From the NCBI GenBank assembly GCA_018396955.1, contig JAGTQI010000001.1, positions 6,467 to 70,466 on the forward strand: DNA of 64,000 nucleotides, written 5' to 3'. The notes under the pieces are model-generated. The model worked only from the letters and a program-made list of their open reading frames with translations. It did not search any database and was not told where the DNA came from. This stretch comes from Candidatus Bathyarchaeota archaeon. GTDB taxonomy: Archaea; Thermoproteota; Bathyarchaeia; Bathyarchaeales; Bathycorpusculaceae. Below, piece by piece: positions 2,618 through 28,597 of this stretch. Both the position numbers and the translations under genes were made by a program. Within the stretch, counting starts at the first letter, position 1, and every line of letters begins with the position of its first letter.

Positions 2618-2682
2618 CCTTTATTCTGTCCAATATTTTTATTTGGCTCGTTGCTATGTAGCCTCATAGCATTAAACTTTGA

Positions 2683-3957
2683 GTGAAAAATTTGAGCGCC
2701 CCTAAAAAAAGGACGTCCCTCGAACTCTTCCGGTTAAAAAAGATACTGAACACGCTGGCTGATAAAGAGGGACGGGGAACAGAGCTTATTTCGCTTTACA
2801 TTCCGCCGGGAAAACAGATCAGCGAAGTTATGAACATGCTTAGAGAGGAGTATGGCACTGCTTCAAACATAAAATCCACAACAACCCGAAAAAACGTTCA
2901 AGACGCCATTGTAAAGGTTCAACAGCGCCTAAAACTTTTCAAAGAAACCCCAGAAAACGGACTTGTCATATTTTGCGGGGCCGTGCCCCAAAATGGTGCT
3001 GGAAGCGAAAAAATTGAAACATACGTGATTATACCGCCGGAGCCCATAAACATATACCTTTACAGATGCGACTCTCGCTTTCATACAGAACATTTGCAAG
3101 AGCTTTTGAGGGAAAAAGAGACTTATGGCATACTCCTCATAGATGCAACGGCCGCAACCCTCGCAACTCTTCAGGGTAGAAGACTCGAAATAGTTCAAGA
3201 AGTGACATCTGGTGTTCCGGGGAAAACTCGTGCTGGGGGACAATCCGCCAGAAGGTTTGAAAGGCTTAGGGAAATGCGCCTCCAAGAGTATTTTAGGCGT
3301 GTGGGCGAACACGCAAACGATGTGTTCCTCTCTATAGAGAATTTAAAAGGCATAATAATCGGTGGACCTGGACCCACTAAATATGACTTTGAAAAGGGTG
3401 ATTACCTAAACTACCAGCTGAAGGAGAAAATCATCGACACTGTTGATACTGCTTATGTTGACGAGCAGGGAGTAAAAGAAATAGTTGACAAGGCACCAGA
3501 GATTATGAGAAAAATCCGCTATATTGAAGAGAGGCAAATAATGCAGCAATTCCTATACGAGATTGGTCATGATACTGGTCTCGCCACTTATGGGGAAGAA
3601 GCCGTTAGAAAAGCCCTAGAAGCAGGCGCCGTTAAAACCCTGCTACTTTCAGAAGGTCTTGACATTGCTCGCGTAAAAGTCAAGTGTAACGCATGCGGCT
3701 ATGAAGAGCAACAAACCGTTAAGGGCTCAATGCTAACGAGTTTTGAACAAAGTCTAGTCGGAAAACCATGCCCAAAATGCAAGGCCCCATCATTAAGCAT
3801 AATTGAAAAGCAAGAGTTGATAGAAAACTTCGCCCAACTGGCCGAGTACACAAACACAGAAGTTGAAATAATTTCCGACGAAACAGAAGAGGGACAAATG
3901 CTCAAAAACTCCTTCGGCGGAATAGCCGCCATCCTACGCTTCAAACTACAAGAATAA
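2683..3957 (+). CDS. prf1: Peptide chain release factor aRF1
   Basis: NIKS motif (TASNIKSTTTRKN) and GGQ motif (RAGGQSARRF); length is typical. The C-terminal domain carries a CxxC..CxxC insertion. Confidence 0.9.
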   Translation: MKNLSAPKKRTSLELFRLKKILNTLADKEGRGTELISLYIPPGKQISEVMNMLREEYGTASNIKSTTTRKNVQDAIVKVQQRLKLFKETPENGLVIFCGAVPQNGAGSEKIETYVIIPPEPINIYLYRCDSRFHTEHLQELLREKETYGILLIDATAATLATLQGRRLEIVQEVTSGVPGKTRAGGQSARRFERLREMRLQEYFRRVGEHANDVFLSIENLKGIIIGGPGPTKYDFEKGDYLNYQLKEKIIDTVDTAYVDEQGVKEIVDKAPEIMRKIRYIEERQIMQQFLYEIGHDTGLATYGEEAVRKALEAGAVKTLLLSEGLDIARVKVKCNACGYEEQQTVKGSMLTSFEQSLVGKPCPKCKAPSLSIIEKQELIENFAQLAEYTNTEVEIISDETEEGQMLKNSFGGIAAILRFKLQE

Positions 3958-7001: not shown

Positions 7002-7173
7002 ACATTGTAGGAACCCATGGAATGGAAAATGCAGAAACACCGACATTGAAGTGTTCATACTCTATAAAGGCGTTAGGCTTCCGATTTGCAGGCGTTGCTG
7101 GAGCAAAATAGCAGACACCAACATAGAGTGGGGCGAACACACGCACTCAAGGGAAGATCGGCCATGGAGCTAG
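6979..7173 (+). CDS. Small Cys-rich (zinc-binding?) protein
   Basis: HCRNPWNGKC ... CRRCW motifs. Its end overlaps the radA start. Confidence 0.3.
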   Translation: MEHVSRAEHCRNPWNGKCRNTDIEVFILYKGVRLPICRRCWSKIADTNIEWGEHTHSREDRPWS

Positions 7174-8150
7174 AGCAGATTCCAGGCGTAGGCAAATCCA
7201 TAGCCAAAAGGCTTAGGGACGCCGGCTTCGTAAACGTTGAAACTTTGGCTGTCACTCCAGCCCGGGAGGTTAAGGAGAAGGCTGGCTATGAGAAGCTTGA
7301 GGCTGCCCAGCGTATAGTGGAGGCTGCGAGGCAAGCCTTAGGCTGCAGTTTCATAACAGCCTACGAACACTGGGAAATGACAAAGAGAAGGCTGAGATGC
7401 ACAACTGGAAGCAAGGCTCTAGACAGCCTTTTAGGCGGCGGAATAGAAACACAGGCCATTACAGAGTTTGTGGGGCAGTATGGTTCAGGAAAAACCCAGC
7501 TTTGCCTGACGCTATGCGTTACAGCCCAGCTTAAACCAGAGCAGGGCGGGTTAGGCGGAAACGTATTATACTTTGACACTGAGGGCACGTTCAGCTCCAA
7601 CCGCGTGTATCAAATAGCGGCTGAAAACGGCTTGGATCCAGGCCAAACACTCCACAACATAACACTTTCAAGGATTTACACCTCAGACCATCAAATGTTC
7701 CTTTTGGACAATGCTTTTGAAAAATGCGCAGAGGAAAACGTAAAACTCGTAATCGTAGACTCCGTTATATCCCATTTTAGAGGCGAATACCTGGGAAGGG
7801 AAACACTGGCGGACAGACAGCAGAAGCTAAACCTTTACATGCACAAGCTCTTGAGGCTGGCTGAAATCCTAAATTTGGCTGTGGTGGTCACAAACCAAGC
7901 GCAGTCGGATCCAACACCTCAATGGGGAAACCGCCAGCCAGAAGACAGGCCGGCTGGAGGCAACATCCTAGCCCACGCATCCACCACCAGAGTTTGGCTA
8001 CGGCGGGCCAAGGGCGAAGGAAAACGCATAGCAAGGGTCTTTGACTCCCCATGCCTGCCAGAGGGCGAATGTGTCTTCCGCATAACAGCCAAGGGCATAG
8101 AGGACGCCCCAGAAGAAGAAAAAGCTGAGAAAGCCGAAAGCCAGGAATAA
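7164..8150 (+). CDS. radA: RadA recombinase (full length, HhH N-domain plus RecA core), copy 1
   Basis: MELEQIPGVGKSIAKRLRDAGF (HhH), Walker A GQYGSGKTQ, Walker B KLVIVDS. The start was chosen at internal Met27 of track ORF 7086..8150. Confidence 0.85.
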   Translation: MELEQIPGVGKSIAKRLRDAGFVNVETLAVTPAREVKEKAGYEKLEAAQRIVEAARQALGCSFITAYEHWEMTKRRLRCTTGSKALDSLLGGGIETQAITEFVGQYGSGKTQLCLTLCVTAQLKPEQGGLGGNVLYFDTEGTFSSNRVYQIAAENGLDPGQTLHNITLSRIYTSDHQMFLLDNAFEKCAEENVKLVIVDSVISHFRGEYLGRETLADRQQKLNLYMHKLLRLAEILNLAVVVTNQAQSDPTPQWGNRQPEDRPAGGNILAHASTTRVWLRRAKGEGKRIARVFDSPCLPEGECVFRITAKGIEDAPEEEKAEKAESQE

Positions 8151-9699: not shown

Positions 9700-9861
9700 T
9701 TGGCACGTAAGGTGAAGATTTCAGTTTCCATCGAGCCTGAATGTCTTGAAAGGCTTGAGGACTTAAGCCGTGAAGCGGGCAAGTCGATAGGCTCTCTGAT
9801 TCGTGTGGCTGTTAAGGAGTTTTTGGATGGGAGAAACGCGCATGAACGAAGCTTTAGGTGA
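9700..9861 (+). CDS. Ribbon-helix-helix protein
   Basis: KVKISVSIEPECLERLEDLSREAGKSIGSLIRVAVKEFL. SD aggagg lies 10 nt upstream of the TTG start (start uncertain). Confidence 0.5.
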   Translation: MARKVKISVSIEPECLERLEDLSREAGKSIGSLIRVAVKEFLDGRNAHERSFR

Positions 9862-10843
9862 AATGGTTGAAGGCGGGTTTGAGGAGTTTAGGGATCCTCT
9901 TCTGAAGCTTAAGGGCGTGACGCCTGAGTTTGCCGCGTTGCTTAAGGAGGCTGGATACTACACTATTGAATCGATTGCCACTGAGGTTCCCCACTTCCTC
10001 TTTCAAAGGATTGGGGAGAGGATGGGTTTTAGCCTCGATAAGGCTGAAGCCCTCATAAGGGACGCTAGGGGCAAGCTTGACATCCGCATATTGTCGGCTA
10101 AGGAGCTTTACGAGGAGGAGGTGAAACGCCAAACAATTCCAACGGGCTCAAAAGCTTTAGACGAGATTCTGGACGGCGGGATAAGAACCCAAGAAATAAC
10201 TGAAGTCTGTGGGAGCTACGCCTGCGGCAAAACAGAGCTTGTCTACACCACAGCCGTCTTGGCGCCTAAAGCCTTAGGCGGGGGCGTCCTCATATTGGAC
10301 ACGGAGGCCACCCTAAGCGTAACCCGTATACGTCAAATAGCAAAGGCAAGGGAGCTTAACCCTGACGAGGCAATAGCCCACATCCACCTGCGGAAGGTTC
10401 CCTCATCCCCAGACCTTATAGCAACCCTTGAAACAGCCCACAAGTTCATAAAAGAAAAGGGCATACGCTACCTGGCCATTGACAGCTTCGTATCCCCCTT
10501 CAGAAGGGAATATCCCGGGCGCGAGCTCCTATGCCCAAGGCAGCAGAAGATAAACTACGCCATCGGCTTGCTGATAAAGCTGGCAAGAGCTTACGACATG
10601 GCTGTCCTCGTCACAAACCAGGTTCAGGCAACCCCAGTAGCCCAATACACAACGACAAGGCCAGAGTTTATGCGACCGCCGATAGGCGGATATGTTATGG
10701 CTTATGGAGCCAACAACCGCATATACCTGCAGGAAACCGACAAGCCCAACATAAGCATAGCCACGCTGATAGATTCAAGCTATCTTCCAAGACAAAGCAG
10801 AACCATAAGGATAACTGAAAGGGGAATAGAAGACGCAGGTTAG
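9842..10843 (+). CDS. RadA-family recombinase (full length with HhH N-domain), divergent copy 2
   Basis: LKLKGVTPEFAALLKEAGY (HhH), Walker A GSYACGKTE, Walker B YLAIDS, VLVTNQV. Start chosen at internal ATG 9842. Confidence 0.8.
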   Translation: MNEALGEMVEGGFEEFRDPLLKLKGVTPEFAALLKEAGYYTIESIATEVPHFLFQRIGERMGFSLDKAEALIRDARGKLDIRILSAKELYEEEVKRQTIPTGSKALDEILDGGIRTQEITEVCGSYACGKTELVYTTAVLAPKALGGGVLILDTEATLSVTRIRQIAKARELNPDEAIAHIHLRKVPSSPDLIATLETAHKFIKEKGIRYLAIDSFVSPFRREYPGRELLCPRQQKINYAIGLLIKLARAYDMAVLVTNQVQATPVAQYTTTRPEFMRPPIGGYVMAYGANNRIYLQETDKPNISIATLIDSSYLPRQSRTIRITERGIEDAG

Positions 10844-10928: not shown

Positions 10929-11909
10929 ATGGCGGAAATTGAAAAAGAAGGCAGAATTGAGGTTATTCCAATAGAGCAGTTGAAGCCTCTACCAATGCAC
11001 TTCACGGTTATCGGCAGAGAAGAAGAGGACATGCTGAGGGAGGACATGAAAACCAGAGACTTGAACAGCATAGACCCAATCCTGGCAAGAAGGATGACGC
11101 CTGAAGAAATGGCGGAAGCCAAAGAGAAATATCCATTTGCCAAATACGAGATAATTGACGGACACACAAGATGGGAAATTGCTAAACTTCTAAAGTGGGC
11201 TGAGATTAGAGCTATAATAATAGAATGCAACCGCGACGAAGCCTACATTCTAAACTACAAGCGAAACAGGGAGAGAGGCATTGTTGATCCGATGCTTGAA
11301 GCATTATGCTTCAACCACTTTTACCAGAAGGGCTACACTGCCTCTCAGTTGGCTGAACTGTTTGGGGTAAGCGAACGGCGTGTGTGGGAAATACTAAAGC
11401 GTTTAAGGGTTGGAAGGGAAGCTAGGCGCAAAATAGTCCAGCAAGCCTTCATGGGAAAACCGCTGACCGGAAAACATATAGAAGTCGTAGCCGCACTTCC
11501 AGAGGATAAACAGCCAAAACTTGTTGAAACAATAGCTGACAAAGGGTTAAGCGTCAAAGAAACCAGAAAAGTCGCTAAAGCGCTTGCCACAAAACCCGAA
11601 GTGGTTGAACGAATTCTTGAACTCCCAAAGCCCAAGCTTGTTGAAGAAGCTGAAAGGATAGTTTCTCCACCCATGCAGAAAACGCTGGAAGAACTGGCCT
11701 ACGAAAGGGCCATGGAAATGAAGCAGTACTACCCAGCAACAATGGTCAGCACCATCTATGAACGGTATAAGGGCGAATATTTCCAAGACGTTTTGAAGGC
11801 TGCAACTTGGCTGTTATGGAGCAGACTGACAGAAGGGGAGAGGGAGAAAACAGCAGCCGAGGCAATAAAGCTTGGAGGCAGAGGCTTCAAAGAGCCAATA
11901 TCTGGCTGA
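10929..11909 (+). CDS. ParB/Srx N-terminal domain protein with HTH
   Basis: YEIIDGHTRWEIAK (ParB-like DGHxR box) and an HTH-like YTASQLAELFGVSERRVWEIL. Confidence 0.6.
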   Translation: MAEIEKEGRIEVIPIEQLKPLPMHFTVIGREEEDMLREDMKTRDLNSIDPILARRMTPEEMAEAKEKYPFAKYEIIDGHTRWEIAKLLKWAEIRAIIIECNRDEAYILNYKRNRERGIVDPMLEALCFNHFYQKGYTASQLAELFGVSERRVWEILKRLRVGREARRKIVQQAFMGKPLTGKHIEVVAALPEDKQPKLVETIADKGLSVKETRKVAKALATKPEVVERILELPKPKLVEEAERIVSPPMQKTLEELAYERAMEMKQYYPATMVSTIYERYKGEYFQDVLKAATWLLWSRLTEGEREKTAAEAIKLGGRGFKEPISG

Positions 11910-12534
11910 AAGGCTTCACAGCCTTTTTGTCGCCCGCACCGACGTCTACGGAGTGGAAGACAAGCATGGATGGAGAACCGAAAGGGGAAAACTCACCATA
12001 AACCACATTGAAAACCACCTGAAGGGAGAGTTCACCCTAGGCGTTTACCCCTTCAACAGGAAAGGCGTCATCAAATGGCTCCTCATAGACATAGACTACA
12101 AGGTTGGAGAACTATTCTACGATTACATGTGCAGAAAGTTCAGCAGGGAAAGCGTAATCCTCGAAGAGACAGGAGGAAAAGGCACCCATGTATGGGCGTT
12201 TCTGCAGCCAACACCCCTATGGCAAATAGCCCACAAAATAGACGAGATGGAAAATGAAACCAAACACAGAATATTCCCAAAACAGCGAGAATGGAAAAGC
12301 GACATAATAGGCAATTTTGTCCGCCTACCACTGGGCAAACATCACAAGACCGGAAACTGGAGCAAAATAGTCAAAGGCGACATATGGACAGCCAAGCCAT
12401 ACATTACCTGTGTTCACCGTGTTTACGACCAGTTTGGAGATGGAAACTGCCCAGCCATCGACGGCACAGCAGGCCACTGCCAAGAAAACCTATGTCCCCA
12501 CATGCTGAAAAGGAGTCAACGTTATGGACGTTAA
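11872..12534 (+). CDS. Primase-polymerase (AEP superfamily PrimPol domain)
   Basis: LLIDIDYK (DxD), GGKGTHVWAF (sGxGxH) and FVRLPLGKHHKTG motifs in the canonical order. Overlaps the end of parB-like. Confidence 0.65.
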   Translation: MEAEASKSQYLAERLHSLFVARTDVYGVEDKHGWRTERGKLTINHIENHLKGEFTLGVYPFNRKGVIKWLLIDIDYKVGELFYDYMCRKFSRESVILEETGGKGTHVWAFLQPTPLWQIAHKIDEMENETKHRIFPKQREWKSDIIGNFVRLPLGKHHKTGNWSKIVKGDIWTAKPYITCVHRVYDQFGDGNCPAIDGTAGHCQENLCPHMLKRSQRYGR

Positions 12535-12685
12535 TACGAGGCTTTTAGCCCTTGCGGAGAGGCTTGAGAGGATGGCTTTAGACCTGGAAGCCTACTCCGC
12601 CCTAATCGAGAAATACAACCGAATAATCAGGGAAGGGCTGAAGCGGTTCCGCACGCCAATCATTCAAACATTGAGGGGAGGTTGA
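12524..12685 (+). CDS. Small coiled-coil protein, 53 aa, not in the ORF track
   Basis: Own translation MDVNTRLLALAERLERMALDLEAYSALIEKYNRIIREGLKRFRTPIIQTLRGG; fills the gap between flanking genes. Confidence 0.3.
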   Translation: MDVNTRLLALAERLERMALDLEAYSALIEKYNRIIREGLKRFRTPIIQTLRGG

Positions 12686-12889
12686 GTGGGAAGGGTAAAA
12701 ACCATAGTTAAAGTTCCAATAGAGGAGACGCGATGCTGGAGTTGTAGCCTTCTCGAAAAAACAGTGGGGGGCGACTCAACTACTGGGCAAATAGTTAAAC
12801 GCTACAGGTGTCCAAGAAACGCTGTCCTGCCAGACCAGCTTCCGCCCTACTTTGCGGAGAAATGCGAACTATACAGGCGGAAGGTATGA
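12686..12889 (+). CDS. Small Cys-containing protein
   Basis: 67-aa ORF with CWSC ... C motifs; abuts the previous ORF. Confidence 0.3.
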   Translation: MGRVKTIVKVPIEETRCWSCSLLEKTVGGDSTTGQIVKRYRCPRNAVLPDQLPPYFAEKCELYRRKV

Positions 12890-12936
12890 TTGGATCGGTT
12901 TGCTAGTAGCGGATTTCACCCCAATGTAGAAAAAGG

Positions 12937-13152
12937 TCATGTGAACCTTTCGAGGTCGTTGCCGTGGTTTTTGAACCATTCCTCGAGGGCTTCATGCACT
13001 ATCCTGGTTTTTAACCCTTGGGGTATGCGTCCCATCTTGTTGGCTACCGCCAGAAGATAAGAGTTCATTTTCTCCATAAGCTCAGGAGTCAGCCTCACCG
13101 TCAGCCATTCCGGTCCTTTAGGCATACCAACACCATAAACCTCATACCACAA
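12937..13152 (-). CDS. RHH-like small protein
   Basis: LTVRLTPELMEKMNSYLLAVANKMGRIPQGLKTRIVHEALEEWF. Confidence 0.4.
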   Translation of the reverse strand: MWYEVYGVGMPKGPEWLTVRLTPELMEKMNSYLLAVANKMGRIPQGLKTRIVHEALEEWFKNHGNDLERFT

Positions 13153-13160
13153 GCTGGTAT

Positions 13161-13571
13161 TTATGATTTCCTATCCTCAACAAAAAGCTTCAGAGAAAAC
13201 TTGCTGCGGCTAATTATTGGAATTGGCTTCTTAGCCTCTTCAATCGGCAGGTATTGAAGGTTCAGGCAAGCCACAATCATCGTTAGAAGCCTCTTAGTTG
13301 AGGCTTCGTCGATTTTAGTATTTTCCAGATATTGTAGGCTGTATCCGTCTGGTCCCACACCAGCCATTACGCCGCAGTTAGCCATCGTGTTGAAAATCCA
13401 CATGGCTGCTCCAACAACGCCTATTGCGTTGTCAGCTAAATCCTCAGCCCTCTTAGCCTCGTTGAAGGCGTAAACATACCATTTCTCGCCTATAGCAGTC
13501 TTGTTCTTCTCAAGCCACTCATAAAAGGCTTTGAATAGGGATTCTCTGAACATTCTGACGAGGGATTCCAT
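13161..13571 (-). CDS. Hypothetical protein
   Basis: 136-aa ORF in a tightly packed minus-strand gene array. Confidence 0.35.
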   Translation of the reverse strand: MESLVRMFRESLFKAFYEWLEKNKTAIGEKWYVYAFNEAKRAEDLADNAIGVVGAAMWIFNTMANCGVMAGVGPDGYSLQYLENTKIDEASTKRLLTMIVACLNLQYLPIEEAKKPIPIISRSKFSLKLFVEDRKS

Positions 13572-13574
13572 GTT

Positions 13575-14030
13575 TTAACCCTTCAAGAAGGCCTTATAAT
13601 CTGTAAGCCGTCTATCGACCTTCTTTGAGAAGTCCTTCAGGGAGAAGCTTAATGCAGGCTTTTCTGAGCCTAGGAGACCTTTAAGCCATGCCAGGATTTT
13701 CTCGCTGTACGCCTTGTCGCTTGCCCCTTCATAGTGGATCTTTGTTATGTGGGGGCTGTCAACATAGTCTTTGGGCTCGACTGTGAAGGATAGCCATTCT
13801 CCCCAGGAGTCTGGCTTATCCCTCTTGTATAACGACACGTATATCTTCATTATCTCGCCTTTGACGCCGTAGCTGAACTCTAAGTCGACAACCATGTTTT
13901 CTGACCTAACATGTATCTCGTCTATCCTCTGCATCATGCCAGTAACTTCATGGGCGAACCGTTGCAGGGCAGCCTCAAACTGTTCGATGGAGTATTCGCT
14001 TCTTATGGTTCCCATAACGCCACCCCACAC
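13575..14030 (-). CDS. Hypothetical protein
   Basis: 151-aa ORF preceded by the recurrent GGGGTG SD motif. Confidence 0.35.
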   Translation of the reverse strand: MWGGVMGTIRSEYSIEQFEAALQRFAHEVTGMMQRIDEIHVRSENMVVDLEFSYGVKGEIMKIYVSLYKRDKPDSWGEWLSFTVEPKDYVDSPHITKIHYEGASDKAYSEKILAWLKGLLGSEKPALSFSLKDFSKKVDRRLTDYKAFLKG

Positions 14031-14042
14031 AGAAAAAGGGGG

Positions 14043-14981
14043 CTATTTACGCCTCAGTTTGATCCATTCGGCTAGGTTGAATTGGTCGGCTGTTATGGGC
14101 GGAGGCTTAACGTAGAATTTTGAAACGTCTGCTGGCGCCCATAGGTTTCCATAATCCCATAGGGGACTTGACGGCCCAGTATGATCTGGGTCTATTAATA
14201 GCGAGTTTGCGCAGACAATGCTGTATGGGTGTCTGCTGAACAGGGCCATGTTGACGAGGCAGGCTCTATACATCCAAACGTCTATGTCTATGCCGAACAG
14301 GATTAGGGGCTCGTCTGGATACATGAGGCTAGCTTCTATAAGGAAGCGACCAGTCCCAACCGCAGGGTCAAGAATTGTTTGAGGCTTCTTGAGGCTTTCA
14401 ACGTTTTTAGCGGCCCTTTCCAGGGCTTTGCTCGCCCATAGTGGTGGACCATGCCTAAGCGTGTAGTCTGCCGTCCAAAGCAGTGCTTCAGCGTCAACCC
14501 AGACCCCCTCCTTCTTGAGGAGGTAGTCCGTCATAACCATTTGAAGCATGAGCTGGACAACGCTTCTCGGCGTTAGCATTTGTCCAAGCCTGCTGTTGGC
14601 TAGGCGTTCCTCCATGAAGACTTCGCCGATGTAGTCCCATGGCTTAGCCCTTGCAGCCTCAACAAACTCCTCAATCAGCCCAGTCCGCCTAACCCTTTCA
14701 GCCAAATCCTTTGGAACCTCGCGTTTTGCAGGCTTAATTTCTCCCTTGAAAAGCCTGCTTTTGGGCAGTTCTGGAAGCGAGTAACGCCAAGGCTCTTCTA
14801 TAATGCCTAAATGGTCAGCCACAAGCTCTATGGCTGTTTCCCAGCAACGCCTAGTTGAATGTCCAGTGGCATGGTAAACCTCGTCCATAATGCCCATGAA
14901 AAGCTGTTTGGCATCGCTTTCTCTGGCTCTTTTAAGCCTAACCCTGTAAAGCAGCTCCTCTAAGTTGCTTCTTTTATCCAA
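14043..14981 (-). CDS. SAM-dependent N6-methyltransferase-like protein with atypical catalytic motif
   Basis: Motif I ILDPAVGTGRFLIEA, then CANSLLID. A KPPP tetrad (14097-14108) sits where (N/D)PP(Y/F) is expected, and the protein ends about 17 aa later. Confidence 0.55.
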   Translation of the reverse strand: MDKRSNLEELLYRVRLKRARESDAKQLFMGIMDEVYHATGHSTRRCWETAIELVADHLGIIEEPWRYSLPELPKSRLFKGEIKPAKREVPKDLAERVRRTGLIEEFVEAARAKPWDYIGEVFMEERLANSRLGQMLTPRSVVQLMLQMVMTDYLLKKEGVWVDAEALLWTADYTLRHGPPLWASKALERAAKNVESLKKPQTILDPAVGTGRFLIEASLMYPDEPLILFGIDIDVWMYRACLVNMALFSRHPYSIVCANSLLIDPDHTGPSSPLWDYGNLWAPADVSKFYVKPPPITADQFNLAEWIKLRRK

Positions 14982-15011
14982 AAGGCACCCCGAAAAAAGA
15001 GAAAAAGGGTT

Positions 15012-15800
15012 TTAGCTTGTTTGCTGTTGCTTCTTTTTCTTGGCTGTTGCCACTATAAGCTGGACTGGTGGAAGCCTCTCAAGGGTTGGAGCCTGTTTCA
15101 CGGGTATGGGAATCTTGGCCGGTGTCTCCATTAAATGGTTGAGCCTCATCTTGGTGTCTGTCAGCTTCAGAAGCCAGCCGAACTTTCCATCAGCCATAAT
15201 CGGGCATAGAAAGGCATAATAGCTTACGAAGCCTCTTCCGTGGCTGTAGGTGGCTACGCCAACCTTGTCCTCTTTGAGCATTTTCTCGGCGAGCTCCCAA
15301 AGCTTCACAACGTCCAGCTTCTTGTCCGTGTATAGTTCATAGACGGCTGTGATAACGAACTCGTCCACCACGGTTGATGGAACCCAGTTTTCAGGCGGAA
15401 TATCTAACAGCTGAGTTCTCTCGAATGGGCGGACAGTGTGTTCTTCGCCATTCTCGTCTATGTAATAGTATTCTATAAGCTCGCCTATTTCCTTCTCGTC
15501 CACAACGTTGCCCTTAGAATCCACAAGCTTGTAGCTGTAGTGGGATAGGATTTCGAGAGCTTCGCTGGAGGACACCTGCTTTCCAGTCTCAGGGTCTATA
15601 AGCCTTGTCTCTGTGGCTAGCTCCTTTCCATGTCCAATCCACAGAAAACGTCTGTCAGCCACAACCCTAACCTTCTCCAGAATGTCGCCCGTGTCGATTC
15701 TACGCATTTGGATATCTGGCTTTGGCACCATGATCTCGTTGCCCACAAGCTTCATTTTAACGTCAACTTCTATTCCAGCAGTCCTTATCCTTAGGGGCAT
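15012..15800 (-). CDS. Ku-like DNA end-binding protein (tentative)
   Basis: By eye the central and C-terminal part (WVPSTVVDEF..YELYTDKKLDVVKLWELAEKMLKEDKVGVATYSH..) aligns with the bacterial Ku core (FVP..VDP..Y.L.PD...Y.LL...L.......AI..F). Lies immediately next to an ATP-dependent ligase. Confidence 0.4.
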   Translation of the reverse strand: MPLRIRTAGIEVDVKMKLVGNEIMVPKPDIQMRRIDTGDILEKVRVVADRRFLWIGHGKELATETRLIDPETGKQVSSSEALEILSHYSYKLVDSKGNVVDEKEIGELIEYYYIDENGEEHTVRPFERTQLLDIPPENWVPSTVVDEFVITAVYELYTDKKLDVVKLWELAEKMLKEDKVGVATYSHGRGFVSYYAFLCPIMADGKFGWLLKLTDTKMRLNHLMETPAKIPIPVKQAPTLERLPPVQLIVATAKKKKQQQTS

Positions 15801-15829
15801 AGAAGCACCCCGTGAAAGAAAAAGGGAGG

Positions 15830-16730
15830 TCAGATGGTTTTGATGAACACCGGATGCCTTAAATGCCCATTCTCCGTGGTTTCATAGTATTTTACGAGAA
15901 CCTTTAGGTTGGCTTTGACGGCTATGTAGGGCTCGCCTACAACATTTTCGGGATAGGGCTTCTCGGCTGGCGGGCTACGGCTGAGGACATCCCATATCCT
16001 AGCCATTTCATAGTTGTTGAAGCCTGAGCCGACGCATCCCCTGAAGCTTCCGTCTTTAGGGTTAGCTAAGACGAGGCTTCCGAAATGTCTGCCCTTGCTG
16101 CTTGGACAGTAGCCCACGATGAGGCATTCTTCAGTCCGCCAGTTCTTAACCTTAAGCCAGCTCCATGAGCGTTCGCCTAAAACGTAGCGGCTGTTAAAGT
16201 CCTTAAGGATTAATCCTTCCCTCTGCTCAGAAACAGCCTCCATCCAAGCTTTTTCAACATCCCGCCTGTATGGAACAAACTGTATGGTGTTAGACTTGCC
16301 TATTAACGCCCTTAGAAGTGTCTTCCTTTTCCAGTAGGGCTTGTCCACAACATACTCGCCTTCAAGCTTTATAATGTCGAAAGCCTTGAAAGCCACGGGA
16401 TACCTGCGTATTAAGAGCGGGTCTGGGAACTGGGTGCTGCAACGCCTCTGGCATGGAGTGAACTCTTCCCGTCCCGTTTCCGGATTTATGTAAACCACTT
16501 CGCCGTCAATTATGAAGCTTCCTGGGATAGCCTTTGCCGCTTCAACAATCTCTGGAAGCCTAACAGTGTAGATTATGCCGTGGCGGTTCTGAAGGGTAAC
16601 TTCGCCTTTCTCCTTGATGACTAGGCATCTTGTCCCATCATATCTGCCGAGCTGGATTAAACCAGCTTTTCGGCTCAGCAACAAAACCCTGCCTTTTAAG
16701 GTCGCTTAAATCCCCTGTCTGACAAAGCAT
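15830..16730 (-). CDS. ATP-dependent DNA ligase (minimal, about 291 aa if joined), interrupted by a 25-nt intervening sequence in motif I
   Basis: Downstream part: YDGTRCLV, FIIDGEVV, FKAFDII, EGLILKD, WLKVK, which are ligase motifs I(second half)-V. The 21-codon upstream mini-ORF (16668-16730) ends in GFVAEPK. Joining gives FVAEPK|YDGTR, a canonical motif I. Confidence 0.75.
16643..16667 (-). other. 25-nt intervening sequence in the ligase gene with bulge-helix-bulge geometry (candidate mini-intron; alternatively a disabling insertion)
   Basis: RNA sense: GCCG-AAA-AGCUGG-UUUAAU-CCAGCU-CGGC-AGA. This gives a 4-bp helix flanked by two 3-nt bulges on opposite strands plus a 6-bp stem-loop. Confidence 0.45.
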
Positions 16731-16777
16731 CACCCTTATCAAAGAGAAAACACCCCAAAATAGAAAAAAGGATAAGA

Positions 16778-17119
16778 TTACGGTTGCTTTCCTTTCCAGC
16801 TTATGTAGGCTTTGAGTGAGAAGTCATCTTTGCAGCCTAGGTCTTTTCTGGCGTATTTGAATATGGCTTCAGCCAGCTCTTCGGGGAAATACTTCTCTAG
16901 GAACTCTTGAACCCTCAAGGTGTCGTTTTCAAACTCGCTTTTCCTAACTCCCAAAGAGTCTATTTCTGGGTTAACCTTCTTTATCATGTCTGAGTATATG
17001 GTGACTTGGGGTTCCTCGCCTAAGATGTTGATTACGTAGAAGGCTAAGCGCTCCTTGCCCTCATAGAAGCTTCTGAATGGGTAAGCCTTTCTGGTTATGA
17101 TCTTCAAGGTCTTCACCAC
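16778..17119 (-). CDS. Hypothetical protein
   Basis: 113-aa ORF preceded by the conserved intergenic motif. Confidence 0.35.
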   Translation of the reverse strand: MVKTLKIITRKAYPFRSFYEGKERLAFYVINILGEEPQVTIYSDMIKKVNPEIDSLGVRKSEFENDTLRVQEFLEKYFPEELAEAIFKYARKDLGCKDDFSLKAYISWKGKQP

Positions 17120-17295
17120 TGTTCGTTCACAATCTCAATGCATCTGAGCCCAACATCCAATAGGAGTTTAAGCCAGTCCTCGTCTATTTGCCTCTTCTCT
17201 AAAACGTTTACAGCTACGTCTAGGCTTTTCAGAATGCTAGCCGTAGACATTTCCCTCCAAACCTTAGCGTTAACCTCGTCCATAAAACACCCCAA
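17113..17295 (-). CDS. Hypothetical small protein
   Basis: 60-aa ORF overlapping the next gene by 7 nt; conserved SD motif upstream. Confidence 0.3.
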   Translation of the reverse strand: MGCFMDEVNAKVWREMSTASILKSLDVAVNVLEKRQIDEDWLKLLLDVGLRCIEIVNEQW

Positions 17296-17306
17296 ATAGA
17301 AAAAGT

Positions 17307-17879
17307 TTAGAGTATTCCCCAGCTGAAAAGCTCCTCGTTTGAAGTGAGGGGTGGAAGAGGGCTTTTCAAGTCCCAGTTTTCAAGAGCCAGGTAGAATTCT
17401 ATGGCTGTGTATAGCTCTTCTTCTATGATGGGTTCAGCCCACTTAGCCCTGTCAACTATGAATCTGATGGCTTCAGCGTGGTTTTCACCTGTCCAGTAAC
17501 TGCCCATGTCATAGTTTTCCACGGCTGGGCAGTCTGGAAAAACCTCGGGAAGGAAGTCTCCATCTAGAATGGAGACGTACCATACTCCGCTGTGGTTTCC
17601 GCCATACCTTACAACATCCAGGGCAAGCTCAAATTGGCAGTTCCTGCATTTTTGGATGTGCTTGCAAAAGTTAAGCTCGTCGCTTAACATGCAGAGCCTT
17701 TCAAGGGTTTTCTGAAGCATCATCCTACGCCATTCAGCAGCCTCAAGCCTCCCTATAAGAGCCGTCAAATAAGGCGAATCAGGAGGCTTTTCAACGGGCT
17801 TAACTTCTTCAGTTTTAGCGTTAATCCTCTCAAGCAAAGCCATAAGATTGCTGGACAAATAAAACACCCCCTTAAGCAC
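17307..17879 (-). CDS. Hypothetical protein (Cys cluster CKHIQKCRNC)
   Basis: 190-aa ORF; GTG start with an AGGGGGG SD. Confidence 0.35.
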   Translation of the reverse strand: MLKGVFYLSSNLMALLERINAKTEEVKPVEKPPDSPYLTALIGRLEAAEWRRMMLQKTLERLCMLSDELNFCKHIQKCRNCQFELALDVVRYGGNHSGVWYVSILDGDFLPEVFPDCPAVENYDMGSYWTGENHAEAIRFIVDRAKWAEPIIEEELYTAIEFYLALENWDLKSPLPPLTSNEELFSWGIL

Positions 17880-17939
17880 TTAACCCCCCTAAAACATATC
17901 AAACACCCCGAAAAGAAAGGGGGGAAGCCTTCTCCATTC

Positions 17940-18047
17940 TCACTTCAAATAGATTTTAAGCCTCTCAGCCAATTTTGGGTCTTCGTTGAGCATAGCTATG
18001 ACAATCTCAAATCGTATGTCTGTTAGGCTTCTGCCATGCTTTCCCAT
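17940..18047 (-). CDS. Very small ORF (35 aa), not in the ORF track
   Basis: Own translation MGKHGRSLTDIRFEIVIAMLNEDPKLAERLKIYLK; preceded by the same conserved intergenic motif as its neighbours. Confidence 0.3.
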   Translation of the reverse strand: MGKHGRSLTDIRFEIVIAMLNEDPKLAERLKIYLK

Positions 18048-18076
18048 AGCAAACCCCAAAATAGAAAAGGGGGGAT

Positions 18077-18379
18077 TTAGACATGGAACACTATTTCCGC
18101 CTTTATTTTTGAGACGGCTAGGACACGCAGCGCCATCAAAACCTCATTGTAAACGTAGCCTCTGTAGACAAGCATAACACTGTGTTCATGGCTGACCTTG
18201 TAGATTCTTGGCTGGTTGAAGCGGGCTAAAGCCCTCTCCGCCAACCTGACAGTTTCAACGAAGCCTTTGCCTTCGCAGACTCTACAAGTCTTTAAAGCGT
18301 TATTCTGGTAAACGTAGCCTTTTCCATGGCAGATTTTGCACTTCACTTTAGGCTTGCCCTTCAGTAAAATGCCAAACAT
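18077..18379 (-). CDS. Small protein with DnaJ-type CxxCxGxG zinc-finger repeats
   Basis: CKICHGKG and CRVCEGKG. Confidence 0.45.
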   Translation of the reverse strand: MFGILLKGKPKVKCKICHGKGYVYQNNALKTCRVCEGKGFVETVRLAERALARFNQPRIYKVSHEHSVMLVYRGYVYNEVLMALRVLAVSKIKAEIVFHV

Positions 18380-19069
18380 GGAGCACCCCAGAACAGGCTA
18401 ACAGGCTTTGTGAAGCCTCTGGGCTCCTCCCCCGATTTCCTACCCGCCTGTCGCCAGAGCGGGCTGGGTGCATCCAGCCTACCCGATTAGGGAGCGGCGT
18501 AGAAGCTTAATTGGGGGTGGTTCCACGCCGTATGCGGCTGGACGTAATCGGGGGTTCTGTTTTGTCTTTTACACCCTAAACCCTACGGCTTTGCTTCCCC
18601 GCCAATCGCTCATAAGCCGAAGGGCGGACACCAAAACCTCTAGGCTTTTACGCCTGACAGGTGGGTGTCCTTTCTAAGCGGTTACCTCCATAACGCCCTC
18701 ACTGGGGTGTTGCACAGCCCCATAAACTGTGCGTGGCGGTCAAGCGTCTGGAGTCCTTAAAAATCACAGCCCAAAGGCTTCCGTTAGAGGTTAGTCTCCA
18801 GCCCAGCCTACGCTAACCAAACGAAATAAAGAATAGCCACTAAAATAAATAAGCCCAAATGCCTGTTGTGGCATAAACCAGTTTTCCCGCACGGGCGGTT
18901 AGCCCTCGCAGGCTTGGGCTTATCTTAAGCCTTAATGTAAGCTGGGCTTTTGGAGAACCCTTACGCCACTCTCACAGCCTAACGTTTTTCGCTCAAACGG
19001 GTGGGGTTTCCACCCCGCCGCTGGGTTTCCCAAGCGGCTTTAGGGTAGAAAAATGTGGGGTAATGGCGG
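18380..19069. other. About 700-nt ORF-poor, helix-rich non-coding region (candidate large ncRNA or replication/packaging element)
   Basis: No credible ORF in a GC-rich stretch. Many nested helices are visible, e.g. 18380-18427, an 8-bp closed multi-branch at 18851-18921, and hairpins at 19003-19016 and 19017-19038. Confidence 0.4.
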
Positions 19070-19090
19070 ATAGGCTCCTAAAAAGCCTAT
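19070..19090 (-). terminator. Hairpin with T-rich loop and a downstream T-tract after the stop of 19090..19563
   Basis: ataggc/gcctat 6-bp stem overlapping the stop codon; T5 runs follow in the minus sense. Confidence 0.3.
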
Positions 19091-19563
19091 CACTTTCGCT
19101 TTTTGCTTTCAACAGCCTTCTTAATCCAGTCGGATAGGCTGAATGCAGGCTGAACCTTAACGCCTAACTGTTCGAGGCTCTGGGGGACAGCCACGTTATC
19201 AATGTATTTGATGGCTCTGCGTAATGGCGTTATTTTAGCCATGTGGGGCTTCCTAGCCTCCTTTAGGGCTTCACTCGCCTTTTTAACGTTTTCAACAGCC
19301 TGCTTATAGCCCTCATAATCCCCATTTTTGACGAAAACTTCAATGTTCTGCTTTAGATATTTGCGTGCCTCGTTAGAGGCTTTCCTCTGGTCGGCTGTTT
19401 CCTCTTTCATTTGAGCGTTTAGGGCTATGACGCCCAAGGCGTAGCCTGTCCTCTCCGCAACCAAGTCCCTGAAACCCCGCAGAAGCGTCAGCTCCTCCTC
19501 AACCTCTTTTGGCACTACAAGGGCGGTTTCAGCCTGCACCTGCCCAGCTTTCCCTTTCGCCAT
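19090..19563 (-). CDS. Hypothetical coiled-coil protein
   Basis: 157-aa ORF. Confidence 0.35.
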   Translation of the reverse strand: MAKGKAGQVQAETALVVPKEVEEELTLLRGFRDLVAERTGYALGVIALNAQMKEETADQRKASNEARKYLKQNIEVFVKNGDYEGYKQAVENVKKASEALKEARKPHMAKITPLRRAIKYIDNVAVPQSLEQLGVKVQPAFSLSDWIKKAVESKKRK

Positions 19564-19670
19564 AAAACCACCTTTCGCTTATTGTGGAGGCTAACCCGTT
19601 TGGCTACTATCGTTAGGCTTTTGCGGTGGCAAAACTCCCCGCTACGCCCCTCAAACAAAAAGGGGGAAGA

Positions 19671-19919
19671 TTATAGGCGTAGGCGTTTAGGGTTAGTTCT
19701 AATGGCTTTCCAAAAGGCTGGGCTTTTAGAAGCCATGTTAATGTCCCTTAACTGTTCATGGGTAACCCTTAGAATAACCCAACTGCAAAAGTCGAAGTCT
19801 TCGCTGTCGTAGGTTTTATGGCTCTCGCCGTCATGCCACTTCATTAGCATATTTAGGAAAGCCCTTGTGTAAGCCCATAGGATATAACCGCAACTGCGAC
19901 ATTTAGCCACAAAAGGCAT
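19671..19919 (-). CDS. Hypothetical small protein (CRSC motif)
   Basis: 82-aa ORF. Confidence 0.3.
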   Translation of the reverse strand: MPFVAKCRSCGYILWAYTRAFLNMLMKWHDGESHKTYDSEDFDFCSWVILRVTHEQLRDINMASKSPAFWKAIRTNPKRLRL

Positions 19920-20400
19920 GGGCTAAACCCCTTTTAATGTTTGGGCGTAGCGGTTTAGAGTGCCACTGTAAGCCCCTTATTCCTATGCACACAGCTTATG
20001 GCTGTGCTGGCGTGCCTCAAGCCTCAATATATTGAGGCACACACCCAAACCATACGCACCGCATTAGTGCCTTATGTATGGCTTGGGTGCGTCAAACCTT
20101 AAACCCTTAACCGTGCCTTAACCGTGTGAGGCTTCACGTTAAGGGCGGTTTAAGGTTAGGTTTTCACACGCCACACATACCAAAACCGCACAATTATTTA
20201 AATTTTCATGTCATGCCCGAAATATTCCACAAATATAAATTTGCAAAATACGCATTTAACCATTGATAAGAAAACGTCAAAATCAGCCTTTTCGTTTAAG
20301 GCTTCTGTTCAAAATTTCCATTGTTTTTGGCTCATTTTCGGTTAAAAACAATTAATAGAAACGAAAGAATACTATTCTTTCATTCCATATAAGGTTTTCG
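19920..20400. other. Non-coding region with perfect palindromes and iteron-like repeats next to the recombinase module (candidate ori or att/arm-site region)
   Basis: 18-nt perfect palindrome at 20021-20038; tandem ccttaaccgtg x2 at 20105-20126 with an inverted near-copy at 20135-20144; palindrome gaaagaata-c-tattctttc at 20363-20381; AT-rich tract at 20170-20400. Confidence 0.4.
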
Positions 20401-20496
20401 TTTTTGAAAAACAAAAAGAACGCATCCGGGGGGAGTTTAGATAAAAGTTTGGCGATTTGGGCTTCTTATATGGCTGGGTGGTCGACTGTCGAACAC

Positions 20497-20925
20497 CTAT
20501 ATGGCTTTAGTGCGGTATCTGGCTCTGAGGACTCTCCGCACTTCAATGGGTTTAATAGTCCAGTCTATGCTTGGATACATGGTTTGTCCTGGTCTCCTCC
20601 AAATGGGGGAGTTTTCCATTCCTGGAGTGATTGCGTAAAAGCTTTTCCTGAAGCCCCTAACAACCCTTTCCCTCCTAACAAGCCTGATAAGCCCCAGCCT
20701 CTTAAGGATCCACATATACCTTTTGAAGCATATGTATGTGCCGGGATTTATCCCTAAATAACGCGCGAATTGCATATAATCCTTCCACATTTCATAAGCG
20801 TAGCCTTCCTTGAATGTTAGGAGATAGCCCCTAACCCATTCGCCCTTCGGAGAGGCTGCAAATTTTCCACCTCTGCTGAACCTCTCCAAAATTTCCACCT
20901 CGAATGGGTAGGGCGTCCTTTCCAC
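20497..20925 (-). CDS. Winged-helix-like protein coupled to the recombinase gene
   Basis: FKRYMWILKRLGLIRLVRRE..KSFYAIT; its start overlaps the int stop by 1 nt. Confidence 0.4.
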   Translation of the reverse strand: MERTPYPFEVEILERFSRGGKFAASPKGEWVRGYLLTFKEGYAYEMWKDYMQFARYLGINPGTYICFKRYMWILKRLGLIRLVRRERVVRGFRKSFYAITPGMENSPIWRRPGQTMYPSIDWTIKPIEVRRVLRARYRTKAI

Positions 20926-21767
20926 TAGCCTGCACCTTTGAAGATTTCTTCGGCCTTTGGTATCGAAACCTTCTCTTGCTCGGTTATTCCGCGGTAGAAC
21001 TGGACTGTTGTGTCAAACCTCGAGTGCCTCGCCACATACTTGCTTACAAGGTCTAGGGGAACACCTCTGTTTCTTAGGCTTGTAATTCGCGAGTGCCTTA
21101 AGATATGAGGCCTTAAATCTCTGCCCCGGGATTCTATCCCGGCCCTGTTGCAGTCCCTCTTAAAAGCCATTTCAACAGCTCTCGCAGTTCTCTCGAAAAG
21201 CTTCTGTTTCCCGAGAATATTGTCGTATTTTAGCAGCATTTCCTTGATCCATGGCTCAAGCTTGTATGTAGCCTTCTCTTCCCTTTTCTTCTTCAAAATA
21301 TTGAAAGTGATTGTGTCTTTTTCGAGATCCAAATCTTTCCTTGTTAGGGCTAATACTTCGCCTAGACGGCGGGCGTAAGCGTAGCATAAAGCGTAGATAA
21401 TCCTGCGGATCGGCGAAGGCGTGTTGGTGATAAGCCTCGCAGCTTCATCATCAGTTAAGAAGTCAACCTCTCCAACATTGCGGGGCGGAATCCTCTTCTT
21501 CAAAAGCTTAAGCTTCTTCTCATCCACGTCTAGCATCATGATTTCAAAGTAGCTGAGAACATCATAGGTGTAGACGCCCAATGTGTTGCTGCTTAAACCA
21601 CGCTTCAGCAGCTCGTCAATCCAGAGGTTAAGCGACTCAAGGCCTGGCTGCAAACCATTCTTCTCGAGGAAACTGCCGTATTGTTTTAGGACTACTTCTT
21701 TCCGCTGTAAACATGATTTGGGATAGAGATCCTTAGCTCTAAACTTGAAGGTTTTAATGTCAAGCAC
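20925..21767 (-). CDS. Tyrosine recombinase (XerC/D-like integrase)
   Basis: ARRLGEVLAL (Arg box), HILRHSRITSL (HxxR), ARHSRFDTTVQFY (catalytic Tyr region). Confidence 0.8.
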   Translation of the reverse strand: MLDIKTFKFRAKDLYPKSCLQRKEVVLKQYGSFLEKNGLQPGLESLNLWIDELLKRGLSSNTLGVYTYDVLSYFEIMMLDVDEKKLKLLKKRIPPRNVGEVDFLTDDEAARLITNTPSPIRRIIYALCYAYARRLGEVLALTRKDLDLEKDTITFNILKKKREEKATYKLEPWIKEMLLKYDNILGKQKLFERTARAVEMAFKRDCNRAGIESRGRDLRPHILRHSRITSLRNRGVPLDLVSKYVARHSRFDTTVQFYRGITEQEKVSIPKAEEIFKGAG

Positions 21768-28357: not shown

Positions 28358-28597
28358 TTGTTTGAAGAATTTAGTGAACTGCTCAGTGTGGTGAAGGAGA
28401 TGAGTGAATTGGCAAACCTGTTTAGGGATTTGAGAGCCGACATGAAGAAGCTCATCGAAACATTAGCCGCCTTAAACAACCACATGTCAAAGCTTGAAAC
28501 CTTCGCGGAGTCCACCGCCAAACTTACAAGGGAGCTTGAGGAGGCGAACAGGAGCATCAAATCCTTAACTGATATGCTTAGGGAGCTGGGTAAATGA
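28358..28597 (+). CDS. Small coiled-coil protein
   Basis: 79-aa ORF overlapping the protease gene start by 4 nt. Confidence 0.35.
   Translation: MFEEFSELLSVVKEMSELANLFRDLRADMKKLIETLAALNNHMSKLETFAESTAKLTRELEEANRSIKSLTDMLRELGK

Follow-up and report, generated by a model that had tools for sequence, protein, structure and literature searches.

The DNA ligase gene of an integrated element in a Bathyarchaeia-like archaeon is interrupted at its catalytic lysine codon by 25 nucleotides (nt) that are very probably an archaeal bulge-helix-bulge (BHB) intron, lying within the codon of the adenylated lysine and removed by the splicing endonuclease and an RNA ligase of the host. We examined this gene in a 64,000-nt stretch of contig JAGTQI010000001.1 from Candidatus Bathyarchaeota archaeon (referred to throughout as the window) and compared it with related ligase loci, for a total of 80 metagenome loci, 6 genome loci and the window itself, about 83 of which could be scored.

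The ligase open reading frame (ORF), at 15830-16684 on the minus strand, has a motif I that reads ...LGRYDGTR and lacks the lysine. An upstream frame on the same strand, with its start at ATG 16730 or at TTG 16742 (the latter preceded by a Shine-Dalgarno (SD)-like GGGGU), encodes MLCQTGDLSDLKRQGFVAEPK and then runs for nine more codons to a stop. Deletion of 16643-16667 fuses a 21-codon exon to the ligase ORF and yields a 291-aa protein in which EPK is joined to YDGTR, and independent blastn gap analysis against intron-less relatives placed a 25-nt indel at exactly the same positions. Motif I, KxDGxR, is present only once the 25 nt are removed (KYDGTR, residues 21-26). The spliced product matches Pfam DNA_ligase_A_M (PF01068, 1e-34) and DNA_ligase_A_C, the oligonucleotide/oligosaccharide-binding (OB) C-terminal domain (PF04679, 2e-8), and aligns end to end with the ligase domain of M. 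tuberculosis LigD (1VS0), placing Lys21 on the adenylated KxDG lysine. Residues K21, D23, G24 and R26 do not vary among the 29 family members that were aligned, and many homologs begin four codons upstream, as MIKPMLC or LIKVMLC. The initial annotation had proposed that a KxDG ligase of 291 aa emerges in this way, and sequence, Pfam and the alignment to 1VS0 all bear this out; the EPK frame of its 21-codon mini-ORF also stands, but the mini-ORF does not literally end at EPK. We conclude that the gene very probably encodes a minimal (291-295 aa) ATP-dependent DNA ligase of an integrated element in a Bathyarchaeia-like archaeon. The unspliced ORF of 284 aa is open and has a TTG start, and if splicing did not occur only this Lys-less fragment could be made. 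Gene callers shorten such genes, and 264-284-aa 'ligases' without the catalytic lysine are present in public databases. The parts of the gene and of the predicted RNA element are as follows.

16752..16767, minus strand: shared intergenic motif UUUUCUAUUUUGGGGU with SD-like GGGGU, upstream of the ligase start
16669..16742, minus strand: exon 1, start TTG 16742 or ATG 16730, encoding (MIRV)MLCQTGDLSDLKRQGFVAEP plus AA of the Lys codon; its end, after the second A, is set by the cut rule of the splicing endonuclease EndA
16671..16674, minus strand: H5 GCCG, exonic side of the central 4-bp helix, made up of the final base of the Glu codon and the Pro codon CCG
16668..16670, minus strand: 5' bulge AAA, the motif-I Lys codon; predicted 5' splice site 16669/16668
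16644..16668, minus strand: predicted 25-nt intron if both cuts fall after bulge nucleotide 2, sequence-equivalent to 16643-16667
16667-16662 / 16655-16650, minus strand: inner helix h', AGCUGG/CCAGCU, 6 bp, with loop UUUAAU
16646..16649, minus strand: H3 CGGC, intron strand of the central helix
16643..16645, minus strand: 3' bulge or loop triplet AGA; predicted 3' splice site 16644/16643, the retained A completing AAA
15830..16643, minus strand: exon 2, from the third A of the Lys codon and YDGTR... to the stop UGA at 15832-15830, with the adenylation-domain motifs beyond motif I and the OB domain

In the pre-mRNA, GCCG, the last four exon bases before AAA, would pair with intron CGGC, leaving AAA as a 3-nt bulge beside the intron hairpin and AGA as the opposite bulge or loop beside a weak exon-exon helix. 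The minimum-free-energy (MFE) fold of the window copy recovers the central helix, the 3-nt 5' bulge and the hairpin (z = -2.6), at the positions assigned in the initial annotation. We infer cleavage by the host tRNA-splicing endonuclease, which in the TACK group (Thaumarchaeota, Aigarchaeota, Crenarchaeota and Korarchaeota) would be of the broad-specificity (alpha-beta)2 type and would cut after the second base of each bulge. Enzymes of this type with an L1 loop have been reported throughout TACK (PMC5829648), and EndA cuts between bulge residues 2 and 3 (PMC2738675). An RtcB-type RNA ligase would then join ...GCCGAA to A-UAUGAU..., restoring AAA (Lys) and motif I KYDGTR, with a predicted spliced junction of ...GAGCCGAA followed directly by AUAUGAUGG... 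and 16644-16668 gone. The position of the cut matters: cuts after bulge nucleotide 0 or 1 leave AGA (Arg), and cuts after nucleotide 2 or 3 leave AAA (Lys). The initial annotation held that any symmetric cleavage would serve, which is right for the removal of 25 nt but not for the lysine, restored only by cuts after nucleotide 2 or 3.

Relatives of the spliced protein number more than 200, nearly all of them metagenomic; the few that are named come from Bathyarchaeia or related metagenome-assembled genomes (MAGs; Bathyarchaeia/Nitrososphaerota), and phage and plasmid collections returned only distant bacterial LigD-type relatives. The contigs come from hot-spring and sediment samples, including the DRTY-6 site and JGI Ga0080004, Ga0207433, Ga0272449 and Ga0315280. 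Uninterrupted homologs, which the initial annotation had suggested looking for, are numerous, and others are cut short by gene callers at the Lys codon. One of the uninterrupted proteins (P0003) is identical to the predicted spliced product over its first 32 residues. About 38 of the approximately 83 loci have an insertion placed exactly at the boundary of the Lys codon and the [YWF]DGTR codon (phase 0); about 45 have none. The insertions measure 18, 21, 24, 25, 26, 28, 31, 69, 70, 72, 86, 90, 91, 94, 95, 146 and 580 nt, and near-identical variants of the window's intron are carried by two further loci, L001 and L010. All three frame classes are represented, with in-frame stops where the length is a multiple of three; read-through cannot yield the ligase. 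Alleles lacking the intron are nested among those that carry it (identity between L017 and L027 is 96.9%), which indicates repeated precise loss or gain. No uninterrupted protein nearly identical to an in-silico spliced one was found above this 96.9%.

To compare the insertions with one another we aligned 33 distinct short junctions in a register-fixed pseudo-alignment, the register being set by coding boundaries only. All 33 share one register: four exon bases, AAA, an immediate inner stem, four bases complementary to the exon, and a triplet NNA. The cells of the central helix (H) and inner helix (h') taken together are paired in 96% of cases, versus 31-40% when the partner is slid; compensatory, double-sided changes occur at eight of their nine pairs, and the covariation score is 0.84 versus 0.06-0.12, a value that none of 500 shuffles reached. 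H has all four pairs in 30 junctions and three of four in the remaining 3 (97% of cells paired), with double-sided changes at 3/4 pairs, the pairings seen being GCCG/CGGC, ACGG/CCGU, GAGG/CCUC, GGAG/CUCC, GACG/CGUC, GUGG/CCAU, GCAG/CUGC and GCGG/CUGC. The inner helix has at least 4 bp in 33/33 (95% of cells paired), and 5/5 tested pairs covary. The AAA bulge lies between H and h', and the 3' triplet directly after H3, in every junction; MFE folds recover the 5' bulge in five of six variants. The 3' triplet has A as its third base throughout and varies at the first two (AG, AA, AU, CA), as expected if a cut after bulge nucleotide 2 keeps only that third base. In a consistency test on the sequences, cuts after bulge nucleotide 2 on both strands give AA + A = AAA (Lys) at all 33 junctions. 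The outer helix (h) of the family consists of an invariant A-U, a mismatch and two more pairs; 71% of its cells are paired, and one of these two pairs, which is U.U in the window, shows covariation at synonymous sites. Synonymous codon choice is constrained on the exon side of H: G is the last base of the codon ahead of Lys in 31/31 interrupted versus 5/29 uninterrupted alleles (p = 3e-12), and where this codon encodes Pro it is CCG in 13/13 interrupted and 0/6 uninterrupted alleles. Like the covariation of H and h', this constraint could not be read from the window alone, on which the initial annotation was based.

The interrupted genes are under purifying selection. Splicing in silico turned 28 complete interrupted loci into intact coding sequences of 287-324 aa. 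The median ratio of nonsynonymous to synonymous substitution rates (dN/dS) among interrupted genes is 0.10 (83 pairs, dS 0.05-1.5), with 0.17 for uninterrupted genes, and the window gene compared with its relatives gives 0.10-0.14. Additional disabling lesions, which the initial annotation had named as the mark of a decaying gene, are not the pattern in these copies. Separately, the ligase of L005, a Bathyarchaeia MAG contig, has a frameshift at ~1590, about 140 codons into exon 2, reflecting either an error of assembly or a genuine pseudogene copy.

Insertions of the same design occur at two further sites in the ligase. At the second site, between GVIYT and RLPEIV in L004 (L004:10004+, ~10080-10125) and L050 (~485-520), the insertion is 45 nt long in L004 and shorter in L050, is in frame and contains three stop codons; it is built of H CUAC/GUAG, bulges ACA and AAA and a stem GCAUA/UAUGC, and standard cuts give YTIR. 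At the third site L028 has a 27-nt insertion between CQ and RRC of a near-invariant CQRRC, ~193 nt past the exon-2 start (L028:3082), with H UGCC/GGCA and bulges AAG and AGA; standard cuts restore CQRRC. This last insertion is in frame and stop-free and could be read through as nine extra residues.

One allele at the motif-I Lys site carries an endonuclease gene. In L086, the 580-nt insertion (2421-3000), which follows the end of exon 1 at 2420 and precedes the start of exon 2 at 3001, has the same H, bulges and inner stem as the 31-nt intron of L072. The latter corresponds to the first 11 and last 23 nt of the L086 insertion at 100% identity and is, judged by this identity, an exact ORF-less derivative of it. 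The loop of the L086 insertion holds an ORF (P0121, L086:2453-2989, 179 aa) that begins MEPDYIAGLFDGEG. Alone, P0121 found nothing in Pfam or in a word-indexed protein search, and its single-sequence AlphaFold model (predicted local distance difference test score, 47) was too poor and was not used for a fold search. Exhaustive HMMER searching recovered 21 relatives, and the profile built from this family hits more than 100 LAGLIDADG endonucleases of solved structure (best E = 1.5e-24), an archaeal rRNA-intron enzyme among them at 1.6e-13; 13 of 16 relatives match Pfam LAGLIDADG_1. The putative cleavage target of P0121 would be the intron-less sequence ...GCCGAACGGAAATGGGATGG.... Only 43 nt of the L086 insertion lie outside the ORF, and it has no Rfam match at E <= 1, including to any group I or II model.

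Several other alleles deserve mention in their own right. P0100 (355 aa) has a 37-residue in-frame insertion right after the motif-I Lys (…VAERK-GLATLYEW…SPRK-WDGTR), which is probably a stop-free 111-nt intron read through by the gene caller. In L065:1-151 a long-type intron is represented by its 3' end and followed by exon 2, with no recognisable exon 1; the contig, which begins 151 nt before exon 2, is too short to tell loss of exon 1 from a longer intron. Several of the 28-nt introns (L026, L005, L011, L015-L025) resemble a tRNA T-arm plus an acceptor-like strand (GUGGG-UUCAAAU-CCCAC-GCCGGCA), a resemblance that other variants lack and that may reflect either a tRNA-derived origin or convergence. 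The 86-95-nt introns (L047, L048, L054, L058, L067, L074, L075) share a conserved hairpin GAGGGCU-AACCGCAUAAG-AGCCCUC, whose loop could pair with a 5' UUGCGG in a possible pseudoknot; they may represent a functional excised RNA or the remnant of a decayed ORF. The 94-nt intron matched no Rfam family, giving only sub-threshold snoRNA noise.

A number of observations weigh against reading the 25 nt as a spliced intron. The outer helix is weak in the window, with only A-U and C-G around two mismatches, and a stable outer helix closing the 3' bulge, as in the strict hBHBh' form, is absent. The MFE fold of the window places AGA and the 3' site in a 5x6 internal loop, and an endonuclease of strict specificity is not expected to cut such a junction. 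The bare BHB shape (a 4-bp helix, 3 nt and a stem of at least 4 bp) is frequent by chance, with ~2,500 hits per strand over 146 lengths. EndA and RtcB genes are not encoded within the 64-kb window, the host being assigned by similarity to MAG contigs, and the protein and contig collections searched contained neither a spliced transcript nor a cDNA-like copy. Finally, the window's inner stem AGCUGG and its counterpart in the endonuclease-bearing intron, GCUAUUUAGGA, are not demonstrably homologous, and so descent of the window copy from a homing intron is something that we infer. The weak outer helix makes the motif a relaxed BHB, as the initial annotation had recognised and as the family's partly paired outer helix confirms. 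At a site and length fixed independently by the protein alignment, the chance of the shape falls to 4.8e-4 for an inner stem of at least 4 bp and to 4.3e-5 for at least 6 bp, as in the window. Taken singly, the window copy is weak evidence and no more than suggestive of splicing; the comparative data make the case, and all computable checks proposed in the initial annotation favour a relaxed BHB intron in the motif-I Lys codon. We also scanned the whole window for BHB-shaped insertions that join ORFs, which gave 5,035 raw candidates and 334 after a loose ORF filter; the scan has no discovery value and serves only as a control for the chance rate. An indel scan against elements of 80-91% identity revealed no further BHB-like intron in other window genes, the other indels being intergenic or in variable regions. 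Insertions of 18-31 nt are far too short for a group I or II ribozyme core, the window's 25-nt copy holds no homing-endonuclease ORF, and Rfam found only one tRNA-Ala in the window.

The other explanations that we considered were rejected because each fails on specific data. In programmed translational bypassing, peptidyl-tRNA-Lys would leave AAA and the ribosome would slide past the hairpin and land before UAU. A stable hairpin does lie immediately past the take-off codon, and in 14 of the 33 junctions the 3' triplet is AAA, like the take-off codon, but AGA is the landing triplet in 17, the window among them, with AUA and CAA in one each, and at the second site ACA would need to land on AAA. 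The gaps reach 146 and 580 nt, and bypassing has no need for a 4-bp helix between exon and gap end at fixed 3-nt offsets, yet this helix covaries. We know of no precedent for bypassing in archaea, which also counts against it, and we consider it very unlikely. A DNA-level hairpin element, similar to a miniature inverted-repeat or palindrome-associated transposable element and either removed at the DNA level or tolerated, with no RNA splicing involved, would account for the palindromic body, and in 14/33 junctions the short AAA...A(G/A)A flank could represent a 3-bp target duplication. Single-strand transposons, moreover, use 4-nt guide pairing near hairpins. Two transposon ends cannot fit one 18-28-nt hairpin, however, the geometry is exactly that of an EndA substrate, and the large allele encodes a homing endonuclease, not a transposase. 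Complementarity between the exon codons and the insertion is kept through codon changes at one orthologous site, as expected if pairing is needed in each generation for expression and not once at insertion. We regard a DNA element as very improbable.

That the ligase is a decaying pseudogene, inactivated by a random insertion and passively carried, would fit the gene caller's product without a catalytic lysine, the frameshift in L005 and the missing exon 1 in L065. It is hard to square with a dN/dS of ~0.10 across interrupted copies that have diverged to dS ~1 with the insertion present, or with structural constraint on the insertion itself. Exon 1 is 21-25 codons long and not continuous with exon 2 as an ORF; the 28 complete loci all retain it, conserved and intact, and neither relaxed selection nor frequent extra lesions are seen in interrupted copies; we give this explanation very little credence. 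The same low standing applies to a functional Lys-less protein of 284 aa, with Arg in place of Lys and a non-catalytic or altered role, in which the upstream peptide would be irrelevant. Its ORF is open from a TTG start, but all interrupted loci conserve the protein sequence of exon 1 together with an SD and start of its own, and the residue that precedes YDG in the unspliced reading shows no conservation as a coding feature. The downstream ORF of the long-intron alleles starts well within the domain, and Lys21 is invariant across the 29 aligned family members. A sequencing or assembly artefact in the window, for which nothing speaks beyond the general possibility in metagenome assemblies, has a negligible probability: interruptions of this site come as 33 distinct sequences, obtained with many independent samples and assemblers, L001 and L010 have introns nearly identical to that of the window, and insertions of other sequence and the same geometry recur in dozens of independent contigs and MAGs, which settles the concern raised in the initial annotation.

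With an RNA-spliced BHB intron as the preferred explanation, the endonuclease-bearing allele points to its history. The window's intron probably belongs to a family that has its origin in a mobile BHB intron with a LAGLIDADG homing endonuclease, or that exchanges with one. Such ancestry would explain the location in the most conserved codon, the patchy distribution and the lengths of 18-580 nt. A broader proposition, for which we see the case as evenly balanced, is that Bathyarchaeia-like archaea and their integrated elements host a population of mobile BHB introns that enter protein-coding genes at their most conserved, catalytic codons by LAGLIDADG homing and decay to 18-30-nt hairpins kept through a broad-specificity EndA. 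If so, the ligase with its three independent sites would be only the visible tip, other mRNA introns would be hidden in annotations as 5'-truncated or split genes, and the introns may act as a host-dependent switch, no active ligase being made where the host lacks a competent EndA.

The window is a segment of an archaeal chromosome, as indicated by genes for aRF1, RadA, formylmethanofuran:tetrahydromethanopterin formyltransferase and Pelota. The ligase lies in a putative integrated element defined by Pfam matches:

10929..21767, no strand assigned: putative integrated element carrying the ligase
10929-11909: ParB-like helix-turn-helix protein
11872-12534: archaeo-eukaryotic primase (AEP)
14043-14981: methylase-like gene
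18077-18379: Zn-finger protein
20925-21767: tyrosine integrase

The region from ~10.5 to 19.8 kb is common to many contigs at 80-91% identity, including a Bathyarchaeia MAG that also shares the RadA flank; no element boundaries or attachment (att) repeats were found in the window. The 16-nt motif noted above upstream of the ligase (UUUUCUAUUUUGGGGU in RNA sense) occurs at 12918-12933, 16752-16767, 17288-17303 and 18053-18068, upstream of four minus-strand element genes, and is probably a shared promoter or ribosome-binding module. Two RadA/Rad51-family ORFs (7086-8150 and 9803-10843) lie 1.6 kb apart at the putative element edge, the second scoring much lower. Elsewhere, 28594-31206 on the plus strand encodes an 870-aa subtilase (Peptidase_S8) with intein-splicing and LAGLIDADG_3 domains, and the product is an intein-bearing protease. 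In a related locus, L069:5645-5769 is a tRNA-Met(CAT) gene with an encoded CCA, an 18-nt insertion behind the anticodon loop and a 30-nt insertion within the T-loop (the latter a BHB with an AAA bulge); ARAGORN recognises the gene only without these two insertions, which are at non-canonical positions and would be indirect support for a broad-specificity endonuclease in such hosts. It is directly followed by a 155-aa LAGLIDADG_1 ORF (L069:5770-6237), ~2 kb from an uninterrupted ligase.

The closest known counterpart is the cbf5 pre-mRNA intron of Desulfurococcales and Sulfolobales, reportedly described by Watanabe in 2002 and Yoshinari in 2006, and the mechanism in the ligase would, by analogy, be that of cbf5 splicing. 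The intron of cbf5, a pseudouridine synthase gene (Yokobori 2009, PMC2738675), is likewise a short BHB-type intron in a protein-coding sequence, at the codon of a catalytic residue, with a relaxed motif that is cut by a hetero-oligomeric EndA between bulge residues 2 and 3 (PMC2738675). Both introns are patchily present, with inferred secondary loss. The ligase case differs in its gene, its Bathyarchaeia-like lineage and its integrated mobile element, in having three intron sites in one gene family with lengths of 18-580 nt, and in its homing-endonuclease allele, which the cbf5 authors explicitly reported not finding (PMC2738675). Splicing of cbf5 was shown by experiment, whereas that of the ligase is predicted from sequence. 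The only archaeal mRNA substrates of the BHB type named in the literature we searched are cbf5, in coding sequence, and HVO_1309 of Haloferax volcanii, in a 5' untranslated region (5'UTR). As predicted for the ligase transcript, the HVO_1309 mRNA is processed at a BHB by the splicing endonuclease (PMC7714728); unlike it, the HVO_1309 intron interrupts no codon and the host endonuclease is of the strict type (PMC7714728). A 2023 review notes that more mRNA substrates 'remain to be discovered' (PMC10485636). Non-canonical tRNA introns with relaxed BHB motifs in Thermoproteota/TACK (Marck and Grosjean 2003, as cited in PMC7714728) resemble the ligase intron in recognition geometry, size range and presumably enzymes, and L069 has such a tRNA gene, but in the ligase the substrate would be an mRNA with no tRNA body to aid recognition. 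The ligase itself resembles the M. tuberculosis Rv0938 ligase domain (PDB 1VS0) in having adenylation and OB domains only, ~290 aa and KxDGxR near the N-terminus; it differs from bacterial LigD-type and minimal ligases in sequence (~30-34% identity) and in belonging to an archaeal family on Bathyarchaeia-like MAGs and elements.

I-DmoI and I-PorI are LAGLIDADG homing endonucleases of archaeal rRNA BHB introns, and this class offers the second comparison. BHB introns with endonuclease ORFs are known in archaeal rRNA genes (PMC6125680), and the literature searched contained no report of one in a protein gene. In rRNA introns such as that of the Vulcanisaeta 'rRNA intron-encoded endonuclease' (PDB 3E54), as in L086, an ORF of I-CreI size sits in the inner-stem loop; they also share with the ligase introns a highly conserved insertion site and ORF-less mini derivatives. 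They differ in that the host gene of the ligase introns is protein-coding, the window copy is ORF-less, and the endonuclease and homing of L086 are putative. New here are the gene, the lineage, the mobile-element setting, the multiple sites per gene family and the endonuclease-bearing allele. The ligase would provide a system for asking how relaxed an EndA substrate outside tRNA can be, whether BHB introns home into protein genes, and how protein-gene introns arise and are lost in archaeal relatives of eukaryotes. Protein-independent BHB recognition in archaeal coding sequence is described for cbf5 only in the literature searched, and the ligase would add a second gene, from a different phylum-level lineage and on a mobile element, with several intron sites within one gene family. 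It would also add a series of lengths that begins with the 580-nt form encoding a homing endonuclease and ends at 18 nt; this series directly connects the mini-introns of mRNA with mobile BHB introns of the rRNA type, the missing piece sought by the cbf5 authors.

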